The notes under the pieces were generated by a model. It did not search any database. It saw only the letters and a list, made by a program, of their open reading frames with translations, and was not told where the DNA came from. A program made the position numbers and the translations under genes. A DNA stretch of 64,000 nt from Myxococcota bacterium. GTDB lineage: Bacteria > Myxococcota_A > UBA9042 > PHBI01 > JAWLBL01. This document shows positions 43,415-53,464 of this stretch, in pieces (position 1 is the stretch's first letter; the number at the start of each line of letters is the position of its first letter). The DNA lies in NCBI GenBank assembly GCA_041687695.1, contig JAWLBL010000004.1, positions 128,001-192,000 on the forward strand, written 5' to 3'.

Positions 43415-46400
43415 CTACGGCTGGATGCCGCCAGGCTGGGCGCAGGGAAGCTGGACGACGACGAGCTGGCTGGAGTCCCGGGTGACGGCGTGAAGGTCCG
43501 GGCCGAGCGCAACGGCGAAGTTGGTGGCCAGGAGCGAGTCGCTCGAGGACAGGAGGCTCTTGGGCGTCTGGGGGGCACCGAGGTCGAGGACCTCGTAGCC
43601 GCTGGGGCCGGTCAGTAGCGCCAGGGGCGGCGTGAGGAACAGCTGCGTCAGGTCGTCCCCGAAGGCCGCCTGAGTGCCGACCACCTTCAGGCTCGCGGGG
43701 TTGGACAGGTCGACCACATCGAGGCGCGTGACGAGGCTGGGATCGGCGCCGTGGGGACCGGCGAGCACGTAGGCCTTGCCGCCCCAGACGCCCATGCGGT
43801 CGGCGCCCAGGATCTGCAGGTTGCCCACCGTGGGCGGAATGCCGCTGAAGGCCGTGTCGTCGAGGACGAAGAGGTTGCCGTAGGACAGCAGGTAGATGAG
43901 GTCCCCCACGATCGCCATGCTCTGCGCGCCCGAGGCATTGATCTTCACGGGCGAGGAGAACGAGCCCGACTTCAGCCGGAACAGCGACACCTGCCCGCCG
44001 TGCGAGACCACGACGCGATCCCCGGCGGCGGTGAAGTCGAAGGCGACACCATGCCCCGAGGACCACGACAGGCCGGCCTCCAGCTGGACCGGGGCGCTGG
44101 GGTCGGAGACGTCGTAGCGGCGGACCTGGGGCTTGTCGAGGGGGTATTGGCTGCCGTTCCAGGGGCCTTTGGACTGGTACAGGGTCCACAGCTCGTCGCC
44201 TTCCCAGTGGAGCGCGGCGCGTTCGTTGATGTGGTTCTGCGCCAGAGACCCCATCGCCAGGCTGCCGACCAGCACCGGCGCAGCGGGGTCCGCCAAGGAC
44301 CAGATCTGCGCCACGGGCGCCGACGAGTCGCCGCAAGGCACGGCGACGAGGTCGCCCTTCCTCACCGGGCCGGAGTACGTCGACTTGGCGTAGCACAGGG
44401 ACGCGACCACCGCCTCGGCGCGCACGTCGGTCTGGCCGTCGCAGTCGTTGTCCTTGCCGTCGCAGCGCTCGGCGGCGCCGACGCCGATGGCGGGGTCGCC
44501 CAGCGAGCCGCAGGCGATGCAGGCGTCGTCGACGCTGCAGGCCTGGCCGGGCTGGCAGCCGCAGGTCTTGCCGACGCAGCCGTCGGGGCAGGGCTCGGTC
44601 GCGCACAGGTGCTCGGCGCAGTAGGGCGCGACCGAGGGGCAGGCGCCGCACGAGCCGCCGCAGCCGTCGTCGCCGCACTCCTTACCCGCGCAGTCGGGGA
44701 CGCAGCAGGTCTGGTCCTCCATGCAGGGCAGGCCCCCCGCGCAGGTGCCGCAGGAGCCGCCGCAGCCGTCGTCGCCGCACGCCTTGCCGGAGCACTTGGG
44801 GGAGCAGCAGGCGCGCTCGCTGCAGACCTGGCCGGCATCGCAGCCGCACTTCTGGCCCTCGCAGATCGCGGGGCAGGGGTCGCAGGCGCCGTCGACGCAG
44901 ACGAGACCAGCGGCGCAGGCGCACTGCTGGCCCTCGCAGCCGGCGGGGCACTCGGTCAGGGCGCACTGGCCGGCCACGCAGAACGGCGCCGCGCCCGGGC
45001 AGGCGCCGCAGGAGCCCCCGCAGCCGTCGTCGCCGCAGTCCTTGCCGTCGCACTTGGGGTCGCAGGTCGCCTCGCACACCCCGTCGAGGCAGTACGGCGC
45101 CGCCCCGCCGCAGGTCCCGCAGGTGCCGCCGCAGCCATCGGGGCCGCAGGTCTTGCCGTCGCACTGGGGCATGCACTGGCACTGCCCCGCGACGCACCCG
45201 AGGTCGCCCGGGCACTCGCCGCAGGAGCCGCCGCAGCCGTCGTCGCCGCAGGCCTTGCCGGCGCAGCTGGGCGTGCACTGGTCGCAGGCCTCGCCCGACC
45301 AGGGCGGCGCGCACTGCTCGCAGGTCGGGCCGGTGAACTTGGGGTCGGCGCATTGCGTGCAGCCGGGGCCGGTGAACTTCGCGCTGCAGGTCGTCTTGCA
45401 GTCGGGCAGGGCGAACCTGGGGTCGGTGCACTCGGCGCAGTCGTCGCCCTCGAACCCTGCGGCGCACTGGTCGCACTCGGGGCCGGTGAAGCGCTCGCTG
45501 GCGCACGCCTGGCAGTCGGGGCCGGTGAACCTGGCGGCGCAGCCCAGGCAGTCGGGCAGCGCGTAGTGGTCGTTGGGGCACACGCAGGCGAGCGCCTCGG
45601 TGCACAGGCCGGCGCCGGCGCAGCCGCCGCACAGCAGGCCGCCGCAGTCCAGCCCGTCGCAGGCGGTGGCGAAGGCCTGGGCGCTGCAGCTCGCGCCCGG
45701 CTGGTCGAAGGTGCTGGCGTCGAAGGAGATGGGCGCCGACGAGCCGGTCGCCCCCTTGACCTGGACCGTCAGCTCGTGGGTCCCGGCGAGCTTGGGCGAG
45801 CAGTAGCCCAGGACGTACACGCGCTGTTGCAGCAGCTTGATGCGCTGGGCGAGCGTGGCGAAGACGTTCGAGAGTTGGTCGGCCGTCTCGGCCAGGCCCC
45901 AGCCGCTCTTGCCGAGGCTCGAGAGCACGTCGGTGTTCAGCTCGCCGCCGAGGGCCACGAGCATCACGTCGTCGGCGGTGGCCTGGACGGCGCTCTGGGC
46001 CTGAGCGAGCGTCGCCACGGCGGCCTGATCGGAGCCGTCGGTGAACAGGATGACCTGCCCCAGGGTCAGGACGCCGTCGCGCATGGCCGAGCGGCGCTGG
46101 GTCTGCGCCTGTTCGCTTGCGTCGATGGCGCTGACGAGCGCGCCGTACAGGTTGGTGGTGTTGGAGCCCGTCTCGTCGGTGAGCAGGGCGTCCAGCGCGG
46201 CCTTCACCTCGCTGGGGTCGCTCGTGAAGTCCTGCTGCACGGCGTAGGCTTTGCTGAAGAAGGCCACGCGCATGCGGACGCCACCGGAGTCGCCGGCGAA
46301 GACGGAGTCGACCAGGGCCTTGGCGGCCTCGACCGACTCGGCCAGCGCGCCGGAGGCGGCCACCGAGGGGGAGTTGTCCATCACCAGCGAGACGAAGACC

Positions 46401-46945
46401 TCGGTGCGGCGATCGTTGAAGATGCGGGCGGCGCTCTCGAAGACCGAGATCGGCTGGCCGTCCTCGAAGATCTCGAAGTCCGCGCGCTCGTCGTCGAGGC
46501 GCAGGCCTACGACGGGCTGGGGCAGCTCGCCCGGCGAGGCGCAGCGGTCGACCGCGAAGGCCGTCAGGATCGACGCCGGCAGCGGCGTGTTGGTCTGAAC
46601 GGGACGGAGCTGGCGGAACTGCACGCAGTCGAGGTCGTCGAGCGAGGTGCGGCAAGCTCCGGCGTCGCAGACGAGGCCCAGCGCCGTGCAGTCGATGGAC
46701 TCCTCGATGCCACCGGCCATGCAGGTGACGGCGACCTGCCCCTCGCAGCGCGAGTCGGTCCCGCTGCAGGCGCCGGCCCCGTCATCGGGCGGCTTGCCTT
46801 CGTCCTCGGCCGCGTCGCCCGCGTCGGCGTCGATCACCGGCGTCGCCCCGGTCGGATCGTCGCCGCAGCCTGCGATGGCGAGCGCGACCGCGAAGGTGGA
46901 CGACAGGGCCGCGGCTTTGGCCGCTTGGAGCAGATCTCGGCGCAT
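43415..46945 (-). CDS. Large lipoprotein: VWA + laminin-EGF-like + CGDDGCGGSC repeats + LVIVD-like propeller
   Basis: IAGC lipobox; DNSPS/T/TDG MIDAS residues; FTGPxC repeats; CGxDGCGGxCGxC repeats; DVSDPSAP and DLSNPAS. Confidence 0.85.
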   Translation of the reverse strand: MRRDLLQAAKAAALSSTFAVALAIAGCGDDPTGATPVIDADAGDAAEDEGKPPDDGAGACSGTDSRCEGQVAVTCMAGGIEESIDCTALGLVCDAGACRTSLDDLDCVQFRQLRPVQTNTPLPASILTAFAVDRCASPGELPQPVVGLRLDDERADFEIFEDGQPISVFESAARIFNDRRTEVFVSLVMDNSPSVAASGALAESVEAAKALVDSVFAGDSGGVRMRVAFFSKAYAVQQDFTSDPSEVKAALDALLTDETGSNTTNLYGALVSAIDASEQAQTQRRSAMRDGVLTLGQVILFTDGSDQAAVATLAQAQSAVQATADDVMLVALGGELNTDVLSSLGKSGWGLAETADQLSNVFATLAQRIKLLQQRVYVLGYCSPKLAGTHELTVQVKGATGSSAPISFDASTFDQPGASCSAQAFATACDGLDCGGLLCGGCAGAGLCTEALACVCPNDHYALPDCLGCAARFTGPDCQACASERFTGPECDQCAAGFEGDDCAECTDPRFALPDCKTTCSAKFTGPGCTQCADPKFTGPTCEQCAPPWSGEACDQCTPSCAGKACGDDGCGGSCGECPGDLGCVAGQCQCMPQCDGKTCGPDGCGGTCGTCGGAAPYCLDGVCEATCDPKCDGKDCGDDGCGGSCGACPGAAPFCVAGQCALTECPAGCEGQQCACAAGLVCVDGACDPCPAICEGQKCGCDAGQVCSERACCSPKCSGKACGDDGCGGSCGTCAGGLPCMEDQTCCVPDCAGKECGDDGCGGSCGACPSVAPYCAEHLCATEPCPDGCVGKTCGCQPGQACSVDDACIACGSLGDPAIGVGAAERCDGKDNDCDGQTDVRAEAVVASLCYAKSTYSGPVRKGDLVAVPCGDSSAPVAQIWSLADPAAPVLVGSLAMGSLAQNHINERAALHWEGDELWTLYQSKGPWNGSQYPLDKPQVRRYDVSDPSAPVQLEAGLSWSSGHGVAFDFTAAGDRVVVSHGGQVSLFRLKSGSFSSPVKINASGAQSMAIVGDLIYLLSYGNLFVLDDTAFSGIPPTVGNLQILGADRMGVWGGKAYVLAGPHGADPSLVTRLDVVDLSNPASLKVVGTQAAFGDDLTQLFLTPPLALLTGPSGYEVLDLGAPQTPKSLLSSSDSLLATNFAVALGPDLHAVTRDSSQLVVVQLPCAQPGGIQP

Positions 46946-47116
46946 GGTGCAGATCCCCGTGGGCGCGGATGCGGAGCCGAGGAAGGTTAGGGCAGCCGCC
47001 TCCCGCGCCGCAAGGGGGCCGAGGCGCCCGGAGCCGGCGGCGTCGTCGCGGGTGGCCATGGGCTGGTCGGCGGCGGTCCGGCCGGCTATCGTCGGCGCCC
47101 GACTCGGAGGTCAGTC

Positions 47117-47938: not shown

Positions 47939-48015
47939 GGCGCCCCGCTCAGGGCTTCGGCGCCTGCCGGGACGCGCACGGATGATCTCGACCGAGGGGG
48001 CGCGGCGCTTGAACC

Positions 48016-48222
48016 TCAGCGCCGCGCCGCCGCGGTCGGGTTTTCACGCTCGGCCCGCGCGAGGTAGGCGTCGATCGCGGCATCGACCTGACGTCCGACA
48101 TCGGGAGTGGGCTGCCTGACCGGCTCGGTGATGACCCGCTGCAGCCCCGAGGGCTGGGCGCGCATCATGATGTAGTCCTCGATGCGCTGGGCGTCGCTCT
48201 TGGGGTTCGTCTCGTCGTTCAT
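48016..48222 (-). CDS. Small hypothetical protein coupled to the SIR2 gene
   Basis: ATGA overlap (48219-48222) and GAGGTG SD-like motif; 68 aa. Confidence 0.6.
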   Translation of the reverse strand: MNDETNPKSDAQRIEDYIMMRAQPSGLQRVITEPVRQPTPDVGRQVDAAIDAYLARAERENPTAAARR

Positions 48223-49856
48223 GAGTCACCTCTCGTCTCGGCGCCGACTCGCAGGAGCGCGGGGCGCTCAGGGAACAGGATGCGCCGAGCCGCGCGTCGC
48301 AAGGTGCGCTTGAGCTCGAGCATCATGATCGCCACCTCCTGTGAGGTCAATCCAGCGTCGCGGCGCCAGAACGGCAGCCGCGCGCTCGACGTGACGTTCA
48401 CGACGGCCACCGGCAGCCAGTCGGGTCCATCCAGAATGGCCGTCGAGAACACGGACTTCCAGTCGCGGTATCCCGAGGGGCCCTGAACCCAGAGCCGCTT
48501 CATCTCGGGCGTGAAGTTCGCGTCGATCCCTGCCTGGTTGTTCACGACGCCCCATGTCCCGCCTTCGGTGAAGACCTTGCCCGCGACGCCCTGCGTCACA
48601 CCTCGGCCCACTCCAAAGGTCCGCTCACGGGCGTGGCGCTCCGCGTCGAAGCCGTCTTCTTGGCTCCGAGTGCTGGAGACCTTGCAGAGCACCGTTCGAC
48701 TGGGTGTCTCGTCGGTGGCCGGCAGCATGACAGGGAGACAAAGGGACAGCTCGATCTGTTCCTCGCTGGGCATCTCGAAGTGAACCCGCAGGTACGTCTG
48801 CATGGCCCGGAGGATGTTGTGAGTGCGCGCCTGCCACACCTGCGTGAAGACCTCATCGCGAGTCGCCTCGGCCACCCAGCGCGACGCGGCCTGCATCCAG
48901 CGCGGGTCCTCTCCCGGACCGGCGTCACCAAACCGGATTTGACGCAGGACGTTCGGTATCTCCTCGAACTCCCGCACCGGGACGACGTACACGCCCAGCT
49001 GGGACCAGTAGGCGTCGAGCTCCTTGAAGGCGGCCTCGTCGGCACACCTCAGCACCACGAAGACCCTCCCTTGCCGCAGCTCAGGCCGCCGCTTGTAGAG
49101 CAAACGCTTGAGGTTCGGATCGCTGAGGCTCAAGCCGACGACCAGGAGCTCACCCTCGAGCAGCTGGTCCAGCGTCCGGTTGATGGGGGCGTTCGGTTCG
49201 GCGGCGAGGGCCTGGTAGTGCGACTCGGTCAGGATGAGTGGACCTCGGTGGCTCGGCATCCCGGGAGGCAGCTGGTGGTCATCGAGCCACTCGACCCAGC
49301 CATGGACGTGGTCGACTCGGAGCTCCGACGACGGGCTCTGAGGGCGCGCCGGGTCCGTCGGTCTCCGGTAGGCTTCGTAGTGCGCCCGGAAGTCCCCACG
49401 CGTAGCCGGATCGAGATAGGCCAGCGCCATCTCCAGCAGCGGGTCGTAGTTCAGCGTATGGAGCACGCGGCCCTTGGCCTTGGCGGCCATCGCCGCCAGC
49501 TCCATGTGCGTGGCGTTCGGCTTGACGTGTTCACGCGTGAAGGCTCCGTACAGAGCCTTGGACAGCAGCCGTGGGAACGCGTCGTCCCGAGTTCCGCGGT
49601 AGACCAGGTCGGCGGCGACGTCGCGAGTGAGCGTGCCATAGAGCGTCGCCGCCTTCCTGGCGCTGCGTTGGCGTGAGTCGATGTCACCTGGAGCGACGCC
49701 GAGCAAGCAGTACTCGGAGACGAGGCGACGACACAATTCGTCCCAGTCCGGCAGACCGACCGCGATGGAGGGGCCCGCGCCGACGAGGACGTCGAGGCTC
49801 TCGGCCTCATAGAGCTCGTGAAGCCGCGAGATGCGTTCGTCGCGCGTCGACAGCAT
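48219..49856 (-). CDS. SIR2-like (SIR2_2) domain protein with C-terminal GAF-like domain
   Basis: VGAGPS..VGLPDW, TLNYD, HVHG and VVGLSLSDPNL motifs; C-terminal QGVAGKVF...SVFSTAI...VAVVNVTS. Confidence 0.85.
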   Translation of the reverse strand: MLSTRDERISRLHELYEAESLDVLVGAGPSIAVGLPDWDELCRRLVSEYCLLGVAPGDIDSRQRSARKAATLYGTLTRDVAADLVYRGTRDDAFPRLLSKALYGAFTREHVKPNATHMELAAMAAKAKGRVLHTLNYDPLLEMALAYLDPATRGDFRAHYEAYRRPTDPARPQSPSSELRVDHVHGWVEWLDDHQLPPGMPSHRGPLILTESHYQALAAEPNAPINRTLDQLLEGELLVVGLSLSDPNLKRLLYKRRPELRQGRVFVVLRCADEAAFKELDAYWSQLGVYVVPVREFEEIPNVLRQIRFGDAGPGEDPRWMQAASRWVAEATRDEVFTQVWQARTHNILRAMQTYLRVHFEMPSEEQIELSLCLPVMLPATDETPSRTVLCKVSSTRSQEDGFDAERHARERTFGVGRGVTQGVAGKVFTEGGTWGVVNNQAGIDANFTPEMKRLWVQGPSGYRDWKSVFSTAILDGPDWLPVAVVNVTSSARLPFWRRDAGLTSQEVAIMMLELKRTLRRAARRILFPERPALLRVGAETRGDS

Positions 49857-49969
49857 GTGTCCGCCTCATGTCACGGTTCAGCCGGATTGTGCAGCGTGGA
49901 ACGAGTCCAGCACATCTCGACAGACCGGACAAGTGGGCCCGAGCGCCTCGCGACGTGGGCTGAGGGCCC

Positions 49970-50278
49970 TCAGTCCCAGCCGTGCAGCCAGCGGGTCGGG
50001 GCCTCGGAGACGCTGCGCAGCTGGACCGGGGTGCCGCCGGGCAGGGCCAGCTCGTCGCCGGGGCCCAGGACGCAGCGGTCGTCGCCGCAGGTCACCTCGA
50101 GCAGGCCCTCGAGCACCGTCAGCACCTCGGCGCCATGGCCGTGGCGGTCGAGATCGGGGCGCAGGCGGCCGGGCGGGTCGACGTTCACCGAGACGCAGTA
50201 GCCGCGCGCCGCGAAGTCGCGGGCGATGGAGGGCGTGTCGGCGGGGCGGGAGAACTTCTTGCGGTGCACGCGGCGCAT
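49970..50278 (-). CDS. Cupin domain protein
   Basis: H.HGAEVLTVLEG...LGPGDELALPGG motif; AAGGAGG SD. Confidence 0.8.
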   Translation of the reverse strand: MRRVHRKKFSRPADTPSIARDFAARGYCVSVNVDPPGRLRPDLDRHGHGAEVLTVLEGLLEVTCGDDRCVLGPGDELALPGGTPVQLRSVSEAPTRWLHGWD

Positions 50279-52332: not shown

Positions 52333-52409
52333 GGCGCCGCCTTTTAGCCGAGCCCGCGCGCCGCCGCCAGGGGTTGACCGTGGGGAAGCGCGCGCGGGAA
52401 GCTGGGGGC

Positions 52410-52871
52410 ATGCAAGACGAGCCTGGACCCGGGGACGGCATCACCTTCTTCGTGCGGAGCCGTCCCGCGTCAGCCAACAACAGCCGCAAACCGCGCTACC
52501 GCAGCAAGGTGGTAGAGGCGGCGCGTTCCCTCATGACTGACCGAACGCTGTTGCCTGGGCCGCTGTATGCTCGCATCACCTGGATTCACTTCAGGCCCCG
52601 TGAGCAGGACGTCGACAACATCGCCAAGCCCCTGCTCGATGCCCTGAGAGAGGTCGTGTACGAGGACGATCGCTTGATTGAGCAGTGCCTGGTCACCAGT
52701 ATCGATGGCACCGACCTGTCGACCTCGGGCCTCGAGCCGACCGTCGCCGACGCGTTGACACGCTACCTGGAAGAACCCTCCGAACATCTGTTGATGGTCG
52801 AGGTCGGCCGACTCAGGTCGACTCCGCAGCCACGAACAGGTCCTCCCGACGCCCCTTGGAACCAGCCATGA
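52410..52871 (+). CDS. RusA-family endonuclease
   Basis: QDVDNIAKPLLDAL..VVYEDDRLI matches the RusA DxDNxxK...D...DD motif. Confidence 0.82.
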   Translation: MQDEPGPGDGITFFVRSRPASANNSRKPRYRSKVVEAARSLMTDRTLLPGPLYARITWIHFRPREQDVDNIAKPLLDALREVVYEDDRLIEQCLVTSIDGTDLSTSGLEPTVADALTRYLEEPSEHLLMVEVGRLRSTPQPRTGPPDAPWNQP

Positions 52872-53464
52872 ACGCCATCGAGTACCTCGAGAGAGCGCGT
52901 GTCGACGAGCTGGCCGCTGAGCTGGCCGCGCAGGGGTTCTCGGTGCGCCGAGAAGCCGACCTCGACGGGATGCGGTACGACCTCCTGGCGGAGCGACCCG
53001 ATGGCAAGCGGGTCGTCATCGAGGTCATGACTCACGGGCGCAAGCACTCGCCGCCGCTGGCGCAACTCCGCGAGTGGGCGGCGCGTCATGGGATCGACGA
53101 CTTCCGCGTGAGCGTCGTCCAACCGCCGCGCCCGATCGAGGCTGATGTAGAAGGCTTGGAGCTCAAGCTCTGGAGCGTCCTCAACGACGATCCGCCGCCC
53201 GAATTCGATGACCTCCCGGGCGCTGCTCGGGTGACCGAAGTGCACAGCGTCGACGTGAATCGCCTCACCGTCCTGGCGGGGCGGGTCGAAGTCGAAGGTT
53301 CGGCGGTCGTCGAGGTCGAGATCGAACACGACGGGGGTGGAGCACGCGACGGGGTCACGTTCGGCGCGGACTTTCCGTTCGAGTTCGAGCTGACCCTGGG
53401 GCCCGACCTCGCCGTCGTGCGCGCAGTGGTTCGCGTCGACATCAGCTCCTGGTTCGTCGACTGA
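52868..53464 (+). CDS. PD-(D/E)XK-like N-domain + predicted pPIWI-associating nuclease group 2-like C-domain
   Basis: ATGA overlap; YDLLAE...VVIEV; VEGSAVVEVEIE...DFPFEFEL...VDISSWF. Confidence 0.7.
   Translation: MNAIEYLERARVDELAAELAAQGFSVRREADLDGMRYDLLAERPDGKRVVIEVMTHGRKHSPPLAQLREWAARHGIDDFRVSVVQPPRPIEADVEGLELKLWSVLNDDPPPEFDDLPGAARVTEVHSVDVNRLTVLAGRVEVEGSAVVEVEIEHDGGGARDGVTFGADFPFEFELTLGPDLAVVRAVVRVDISSWFVD

Follow-up and report, generated by a model that had tools for sequence, protein, structure and literature searches.

A small protein encoded behind a SIR2-GAF enzyme in a Myxococcota bacterium: an apparently undescribed module that resembles a toxin-first toxin-antitoxin pair

The stretch analyzed here (the window) is 64,000 nucleotides long and corresponds to positions 128,001 to 192,000 of contig JAWLBL010000004.1 in the Myxococcota bacterium assembly GCA_041687695.1. 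It carries a two-gene cassette on the minus strand that encodes a 545-residue protein with a SIR2 domain and a GAF-fold domain (the enzyme) followed by a 68-residue protein (the partner). The features of the cassette, numbered from the first letter of the window, are as follows.

48219..49856, minus strand: SIR2-GAF enzyme gene (P0001), an open reading frame (ORF) of 545 amino acids
48016..48222, minus strand: partner gene (P0002), a putative inhibitor or antitoxin, an ORF of 68 amino acids ranked first by profile and placed in a predicted complex
48219..48234, minus strand: Shine-Dalgarno-like GAGAGG (48229-48234) with the ATGA stop/start overlap (48219-48222)
48927..49856, minus strand: SIR2 domain of the immune or NADase type, residues 1-310, from Pfam, profile and Foldseek
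49443..49451, minus strand: N136-Y137-D138, the equivalents of ThsA N112-Y113-D114 and DSR2 N133-Y134-D135
49299..49310, minus strand: H183-V-H185-G186, with H185 equivalent to ThsA H152 and DSR2 H171
48264..48911, minus strand: GAF-fold C-terminal domain, residues 316-531, from the model of the domain alone (predicted local distance difference test, pLDDT, 92.5), VIA-align and Foldseek
48052..48150, minus strand: partner residues 25-57, an extended segment then a helix, the predicted binding region and the conserved core of the partner family

The enzyme and partner ORFs share the ATGA, and the GAGAGG lies 6 nucleotides ahead of the partner start. The G+C content of third codon positions (GC3) is 0.84 in the enzyme ORF and 0.90 in the small ORF compared with 0.95-0.99 across eight flanking genes. 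The cassette is flanked by btpA (plus strand) on one side and by cupin, SnoaL and RimK genes (minus strand) on the other. The convergence of btpA and the cupin gene thus spans the cassette, which places the cupin gene upstream of it and co-directional with it. An earlier note on this DNA, made from the sequence alone, had described the overlap with its ribosome-binding site, the excess of A/T-ending codons and the convergent setting, and all three hold. It had also seen no TIR, HerA, Argonaute or cyclase partner nearby; a Pfam scan of nine window proteins (the pair and seven neighbors) likewise found none of these.

The translation of the enzyme contains every SIR2 motif listed in the earlier note, namely GAGPS (GAGxS), GLPDW (GLPxW), TLNYD, HVHG and GLSLSDPN. 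Pfam SIR2_2 matches residues 132-286 with an E-value of 5.3e-14 (53 bits against a cut-off of 24.5). An AlphaFold2 model of the 545-residue protein, with 48 homologues as input, had a pLDDT of 89.8 and a predicted template modeling score of 0.90. The best Foldseek matches to this model were ThsA (7uxt, E = 1.6e-10), DSR2 and KomC. The same proteins were recovered when the family profile was compared to PDB sequences (ThsA 1.1e-21, KomC 8e-19, DSR2 3.5e-14), and all 22 sequences matched belong to the SIR2 family by name or entry (ThsA, KomC, DSR2, FAM118B and other SIR2-like proteins). PADLOC returned partial domain matches only, the best being ThsA at 8e-9. The catalytic pocket is formed by N112, Y113, D114 and H152 in ThsA and by N133, Y134, D135 and H171 in DSR2 (PMC11263360). 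Their counterparts are conserved in the 48 aligned rows: N136 in 46/48, D138 in 45/48, H185 in 46/48 and G186 in all 48. From the relatedness to immune-type SIR2 proteins and the intact catalytic set we infer that the enzyme is an NAD+ hydrolase (NADase).

A non-toxic signaling sirtuin, either a deacylase or an ADP-ribosyl transferase with the small protein as substrate or adaptor, would suit the housekeeping context of the family, the strong conservation within clades (Nannocystaceae enzymes are 87-96% identical to one another) and the many partners that are basic and often rich in lysine and arginine. The structural and profile neighbors are all immune-type NADases or FAM118B rather than CobB, CobB-type NCBIfam models score 12-16 bits on the enzyme against cut-offs of 221-305, and the sirtuin zinc ribbon with its two CxxC motifs is present in 0/48 family rows. 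These observations make the signaling sirtuin quite improbable. Four other SIR2-like ORFs that have no GAF domain occur in the same genome (C5:25-1278, C5:30562-33477, C17:88-564 and C20:137792-138895), and two of them share one contig.

The GAF assignment made in the earlier note is borne out by fold. Pfam finds no family in residues 316-531 of the window enzyme, and on 31 homologous C-terminal domains it gives weak GAF_2 matches in nine (best E = 0.003) and GAF matches in two. A VIA-align comparison of the domain model to 48,161 chains gave 4mmn with Z = 11.5 (root-mean-square deviation 3.1 over 133 residues), 1ykd with Z = 11.3 (3.0 over 140 residues) and 6x88 with Z = 10.9, and GAF or GAF-like domains make up most of the best 50 matches. 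Foldseek with the isolated domain matched the PDE6 GAF domain (6x88, E = 3.7e-5) and also NreA and T4 holin T. GAF clusters in the ESM Atlas scored 0.87-0.88 and are leads only.

A GAF domain fused to an NADase raises the possibility of a ligand-gated enzyme analogous to ThsA or KomBC, in which the enzyme is turned on by a nucleotide or metabolite signal bound in the GAF pocket, with the small protein serving as a constitutive subunit or chaperone. The nearest GAF structures include binders of nucleotides and small ligands (1ykd, 6x88, 5w10, 4mcw and NreA), polar positions in the domain are conserved (Q422, N447, R464, S468, T489 and S490), and a ligand pocket in the C-terminal domain gates the SIR2-SLOG protein ThsA (PMC11204291). 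The cyclic-nucleotide NKFDE pattern, N[KR]x(3-24)FxxxDE, is present in 0/31 domain rows, and thus no ligand can be named. No conserved signal-making gene lies beside the homologues in the neighborhoods of the close-relative loci, and ThsB_TIR (PF08937) was not found in a search of the window's own genome. A constitutive subunit also leaves the separate promoter of the partner, described below, unexplained. We regard this ligand-gated reading as unlikely; gating by a ligand and control by the partner can coexist.

The 68-amino acid ORF is a real gene and part of the module. Twenty-six genome loci encode close relatives of the enzyme. Three stop at a contig edge, and in 22 of the other 23 a small ORF of 52-109 codons lies on the same strand behind the enzyme gene and starts within ~65 nucleotides of its stop. 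A small downstream ORF by itself is common by chance in GC-rich DNA, and therefore homology and selection were tested. A profile was built from 37 hand-picked downstream ORFs of other loci with P0002 left out. P0002 ranked first of 12,654 ORFs from its own genome (12.9 bits, E = 0.083; runner-up 12.0 bits) and also first of 82,129 ORF ends. When each of ten clades was left out in turn, the best member scored above all 12,653 background ORFs in six. In three others, 22, 68 and 143 background ORFs outscored the best member, and L080 failed. Of the loci not used in the profile, L076 (a new type) and L062, L075, L083 and L147 (known types) scored above all background, and the small ORFs of L143, L144, L154 and L155 did not score. 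No small ORF lies behind the enzyme gene of L088, a locus outside the profile set.

Substitution patterns support the same conclusion. The ratio of nonsynonymous to synonymous rates (dN/dS) was 0.00-0.38 in 48 partner pairs and 0.68 in one. These 49 of 118 within-clade pairs were kept for a proportion of synonymous differences of 0.03-0.7 and of nonsynonymous differences below 0.25, a filter biased toward low values; for the Nannocystaceae nearly all pairs are included (33/36). Purifying selection acts on the partner genes. The multi-member partner groups coincide with supported enzyme clades in a quick tree. The alignment shows a family core of an extended segment, a turn resembling S-T-R-D and an amphipathic helix. 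The partners appear to be a fast-evolving, divergent and clade-specific family.

A stand-alone SIR2-GAF gene followed by an incidental ORF would account for the lack of any significant tblastn or BLASTP match between P0002 and the homologous loci (best E = 0.076; none against L076), for the absence of a usable match in the ESM Atlas and for the narrow margin of 12.9 over 12.0 bits. It is contradicted by the first rank of P0002 in two backgrounds, by selection on its relatives and by the complex prediction described next, and we consider it very improbable. Fusion of a partner to the C-terminus of the longer homologues was also considered and rejected; 0/10 tails scored, and the best ranked under 1519 background ORFs.

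The earlier note had proposed modeling the pair. For enzyme residues 1-532 and the partner, the predicted complex reached a score of 0.82 (runs of 0.69, 0.82 and 0.84) compared with 0.00 for the best of three controls. The mark applied to this score was reached by 116/157 solved pairs and 2/215 mismatched pairs. The runs share at least 35% of their contacts, and the partner pLDDT is at least 61. Partner residues 25-57 contact GAF helices 343-359 and 505-525 and strand 433-438, and on the SIR2 domain they contact residues 31-34, 105-110, 296 and 298. Residues 31-34 lie just past the GAGxS NAD-binding motif. No similar complex was seen in PDB searches. Enzyme and partner are very probably a physical module, and the coupled small ORF to which the earlier note had drawn attention stands as a conserved, selected and predicted GAF-binding protein.

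The outer helices of GAF domains are a common dimerization surface. Switching of ThsA is a change of quaternary structure (PMC11204291), and by this analogy a partner lying on these helices would block either assembly or access to the active site. We favor the reading that the module is a toxin-first, type II toxin-antitoxin (TA)-like NADase that is off with the partner bound and on once the partner is lost or displaced, with a probability of about 0.55. The large protein would hydrolyze NAD+ with its immune-type SIR2 domain and be regulated through its GAF-fold domain. The partner would lie across the GAF helices and the edge strand, reach the SIR2 domain and keep the enzyme off. An excess of partner might be supplied by translational coupling in the window and by a promoter of its own in most relatives. 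The trigger would be loss or displacement of the partner through phage host shut-off, stress or a cue that binds the GAF domain, and the freed enzyme would then reassemble and drain NAD+, leading to growth arrest or abortive infection. The computation establishes the two domains, the intact catalytic set, the conservation of both genes together and the selection on the partner, and it predicts the complex. We infer the inhibitory sign of the partner, the trigger and any anti-phage role.

The promoter question was addressed with a -10 matrix and with crudely called control gene starts. A -10-like hexamer with a score of at least 5 occurs within 60 nucleotides before 20/38 partner genes compared with 9/101 tandem control genes from the same loci and 33/286 controls overall (per-clade p = 0.014). 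One candidate site and a possible terminator were located in the cassette.

48322..48350, minus strand: sigma70-like site TTGACC-17-CATGAT, inside the enzyme gene, 100 nucleotides before the partner start
47989..48038, strand not assigned: 21-bp inverted repeat over the partner stop codon, between the cassette and the convergent btpA

The sigma70-like site has 9/12 matches, and one such site was found compared with 0.1 expected in shuffled sequence. It is a weak candidate for an internal promoter. In the toxin-first mqsRA operon, internal promoters supply the antitoxin (PMC6918082). The inverted repeat is possibly a terminator, though it has no U-tract.

A promoter-like box in front of the partner would also serve an activator. 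In that case the partner would be a peptide signal, expressed separately, whose docking on the GAF domain starts NAD+ turnover, for example in dormancy or development. Activation of DSR2 by a bound protein is a precedent (PMC11263360), and a solo partner paralogue, which occupies another conserved locus in those 8/73 genomes of the Nannocystaceae family that carry the enzyme, is also in favor. An activator made together with the enzyme from translationally coupled genes, as in the window, would fire constitutively, and the predicted contacts include residues 31-34 directly after the NAD-binding motif. On balance the activator is improbable.

The solo paralogue has features of its own. Nannocystaceae partners match the same 8/73 genomes as the enzyme, and each of these eight has a second partner copy elsewhere with ~50% identity; the eight carriers are kin, and thus the co-occurrence of partner and enzyme is not independent. 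No SIR2 or GAF gene lies in the 6-11 kb around the solo copies. In most cases the paralogue (L156:6426-6698, L157-L164) is flanked by a DUF2378-like gene and a 2OG-Fe dioxygenase gene, and a promoter-like element, TTGCGC...CAAGGT, is conserved just before its GTG start in 8/9 solo-paralogue regions. A spare antitoxin and an activator both fit these data. No solo copy stands out in the genome of the window.

A more far-reaching form of the TA-like reading is tentative. The module would be the first SIR2-based type II TA family, with the GAF domain receiving a peptide instead of offering a pocket to a small molecule and a largely disordered, clade-specific antitoxin wrapped around the GAF and SIR2 domains. 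The NADase would be released, as a signal-free abortive-infection switch, when host shut-off removes the antitoxin or a phage protein displaces it, and the solo paralogue of the Nannocystaceae would be a second brake acting in trans.

The enzyme gene is an accessory gene with a patchy distribution. Full phmmer searches gave a family of 43 clusters at E ≤ 1e-30 and 109 at E ≤ 1e-10; a word-index protein search, which has low sensitivity relative to phmmer, found one other protein only. The C-terminal domain is present in 100 of the best 150 representatives and starts past residue 250 in 73 of these. A scan of genomes found 60 loci, of which 26 are close relatives, mainly from Myxococcota and Acidobacteriota records. 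A metagenome scan gave 80 loci, and the domain is present in 24 of 33 examined. Among 50 candidates from viral contigs there was no relative. Carriers number 0/60 among order- and class-level relatives of the window genome, 3/401 in its phylum (the window genome included), and 8/73 (the Nannocystaceae family) and 3/301 in two carrier families, counts that are samples of partly incomplete genomes. The window enzyme is a long, unplaced branch in the quick tree. GC3 of the enzyme gene is under the neighbor median in 15/22 loci, and the difference is clear in just the window, L003 and L007.

The family includes some divergent members. P0044, P0066, P0088 and P0092 form a sub-family with ~160 extra residues after the GAF domain that are beta-rich by eye and have no Pfam match; its two long members have degenerate SIR2 motifs and may therefore be non-catalytic. 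P0112, among the weaker matches, is a 1140-residue fusion of SIR2_2 with an asparaginase-like domain. The enzyme gene appears split or frameshifted in L015:9974-11654 (with Ns at the break), L064 and L091/L093, either by assembly error or by toxin decay, and the partner is intact in L015 and L064. In L147 the start of the partner gene is displaced ~200 nucleotides downstream relative to related loci, and the extra DNA, which begins at the -10 box, looks like a small inserted element.

Several observations weigh against the TA-like reading. The sign of regulation is one, as a separately transcribed binder could be an activator, and the partner in the window has no -10 box in the 60 nucleotides before it (score 2.0). 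No DNA-binding domain that might serve autoregulation is recognizable in the partner (0 families). L007 has no recognizable partner gene behind its enzyme, and the small ORFs of L080, L143, L144, L154 and L155 and of most members of the 'Bry' clade are not scored by the cross-clade profile. The reference counts for the complex score hold only roughly with the alignments made here, and 7/44 blind neighbor pairs pass the same test. The genomic context points in the same direction. The neighbors of the homologues, 148 of 160 cluster representatives within 7 kb of the 26 loci (12 very short calls were dropped), have housekeeping roles, with tol-pal, ccm, thiC and transhydrogenase as examples. PADLOC matched 13/148 of these neighbors, nearly all through generic domains and with no background rate alongside, and the defense-like ones among them are RmuC, a Uma2 nuclease and a methylase fragment only. 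In the Nannocystaceae and 'Bry' clades the enzyme gene is syntenic and its composition has been ameliorated, as suits domestication more than the rapid turnover of defense genes.

Housekeeping neighborhoods and the lack of a relative in viral contigs weigh against a classical defense-island system, and the context therefore lends no support to the earlier note's proposal of a defense module. Of its general description, the SIR2-GAF architecture, the status of the partner and the undescribed system stand, and defense by context does not. None of the outcomes that it had listed as refuting its proposal was observed. One of these was a core and syntenic gene; the enzyme gene is accessory and patchy rather than core, although it is syntenic within genus-level clades. 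We put an anti-phage role of the module at somewhat less than even odds.

Comparison to known systems places the module outside Thoeris, Kongming, DSR, SIR2-HerA and SPARSA. ThsA, the SIR2-SLOG protein of type I Thoeris, is the best match to the SIR2 domain, shares the catalytic residues and likewise joins an N-terminal NADase to a C-terminal domain of a small-ligand type. Unlike ThsA, the enzyme has GAF instead of SLOG, no ThsB or TIR occurs among the 148 scanned neighbors, and a dedicated gene for a partner of 52-109 residues lies downstream. KomC of Kongming (KomBC) has a close SIR2 domain (8zsf, 9v0g) and is likewise regulated by a second module. The regulator here is a fused GAF domain rather than a separate HAM1-like KomB, and no KomA deaminase or KomB is found among the window or homologue neighbors. 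DSR2 is a SIR2 NADase controlled by proteins that bind its C-terminal region, the activator TTP and the inhibitor DSAD1 (PMC11263360). DSR2 has 1005 residues, a helical C-terminal region and phage-encoded binders, whereas the binder here is encoded in the operon and the predicted receptor is GAF. The hallmarks of SIR2-HerA, SPARSA, Avs and DSR2 (HerA, short prokaryotic Argonaute, STAND and a long helical sensor) were not seen in the enzyme or among the scanned neighbors, and the enzyme is a two-domain protein of 545 residues.

Functionally, the closest parallel to the module is a type II TA system of the toxin-first kind, here with a ThsA-like NADase as its basis, and the conserved two-gene operon with a small partner is a type II TA feature. 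The putative toxin is a SIR2-GAF protein rather than an RNase (mqsRA) or a RES-domain protein (NatRT), and its partner has no recognizable DNA-binding domain. In mqsRA the toxin gene likewise comes first and the small antitoxin gene second with its own promoter (PMC6918082), and depletion of NAD is the toxin output of NatRT (PMC11535050). GAF domains bound by small regulatory proteins are found in T4 holin T with antiholin RI and in PDE6 with P gamma, both recovered by the fold comparisons (6pxe, Z = 8.6; Foldseek, 9cxi and 9cxh). Identity to these is 7-14% and their outputs are unrelated; the likeness is one of fold, binding face aside.

The SIR2-GAF and mini-protein module is real and conserved, and it is apparently undescribed. 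In line with the earlier note, no named system with this architecture was found; the literature search returned neither a SIR2-GAF protein nor a SIR2 toxin paired with a small antitoxin of its own, and large candidate-system tables outside the texts seen may list the family. The available portions of 10.1101/2022.05.11.491447, PMC13069673 and 10.1101/2024.09.18.613514 contain no prior description of SIR2-GAF and no GAF domain. GAF domains do occur in other conflict proteins, including the toxFtsL TA toxin (PMC10440598), Septu-ii (PMC11381338), ternary conflict systems (PMC7159879) and the CapP paper (PMC13228613). The SIR2 defense effectors compared here are switched by nucleotide signals, by partner ATPases or Argonautes, or by phage proteins. 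Gating of NAD+ depletion by a mini-protein that the host itself encodes, and that clamps on and is read through a GAF domain, would be new if true and would join SIR2 immune effectors to TA logic. The analysis also exposes an unannotated, selected family of proteins of 52-109 residues in myxobacteria and acidobacteria, in which defense repertoires are little tested.

Other features of the surroundings bear on the window itself. No flanking direct repeat of the target-site-duplication type was present among the 20 of 22 repeat families listed. A second pair of low-GC3 genes (0.78 and 0.83) lies on the plus strand at 52374-53464, 2.5 kb from the cassette; a gene for a RusA-like nuclease (E = 3.5e-9) overlaps one with weak matches to a restriction-endonuclease-like domain and pP_pnuc_2 (E = 1.9e-4), and the two are possibly another acquired conflict pair. 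Upstream of the enzyme gene, where the cupin gene stops, lies a perfect 14-bp palindrome (49959-49972). Directly beyond btpA, on the minus strand at 43415-47059, lies a gene for a 1214-residue protein with a vWA domain, long cysteine-rich repeats and a C-terminal LVIVD region.

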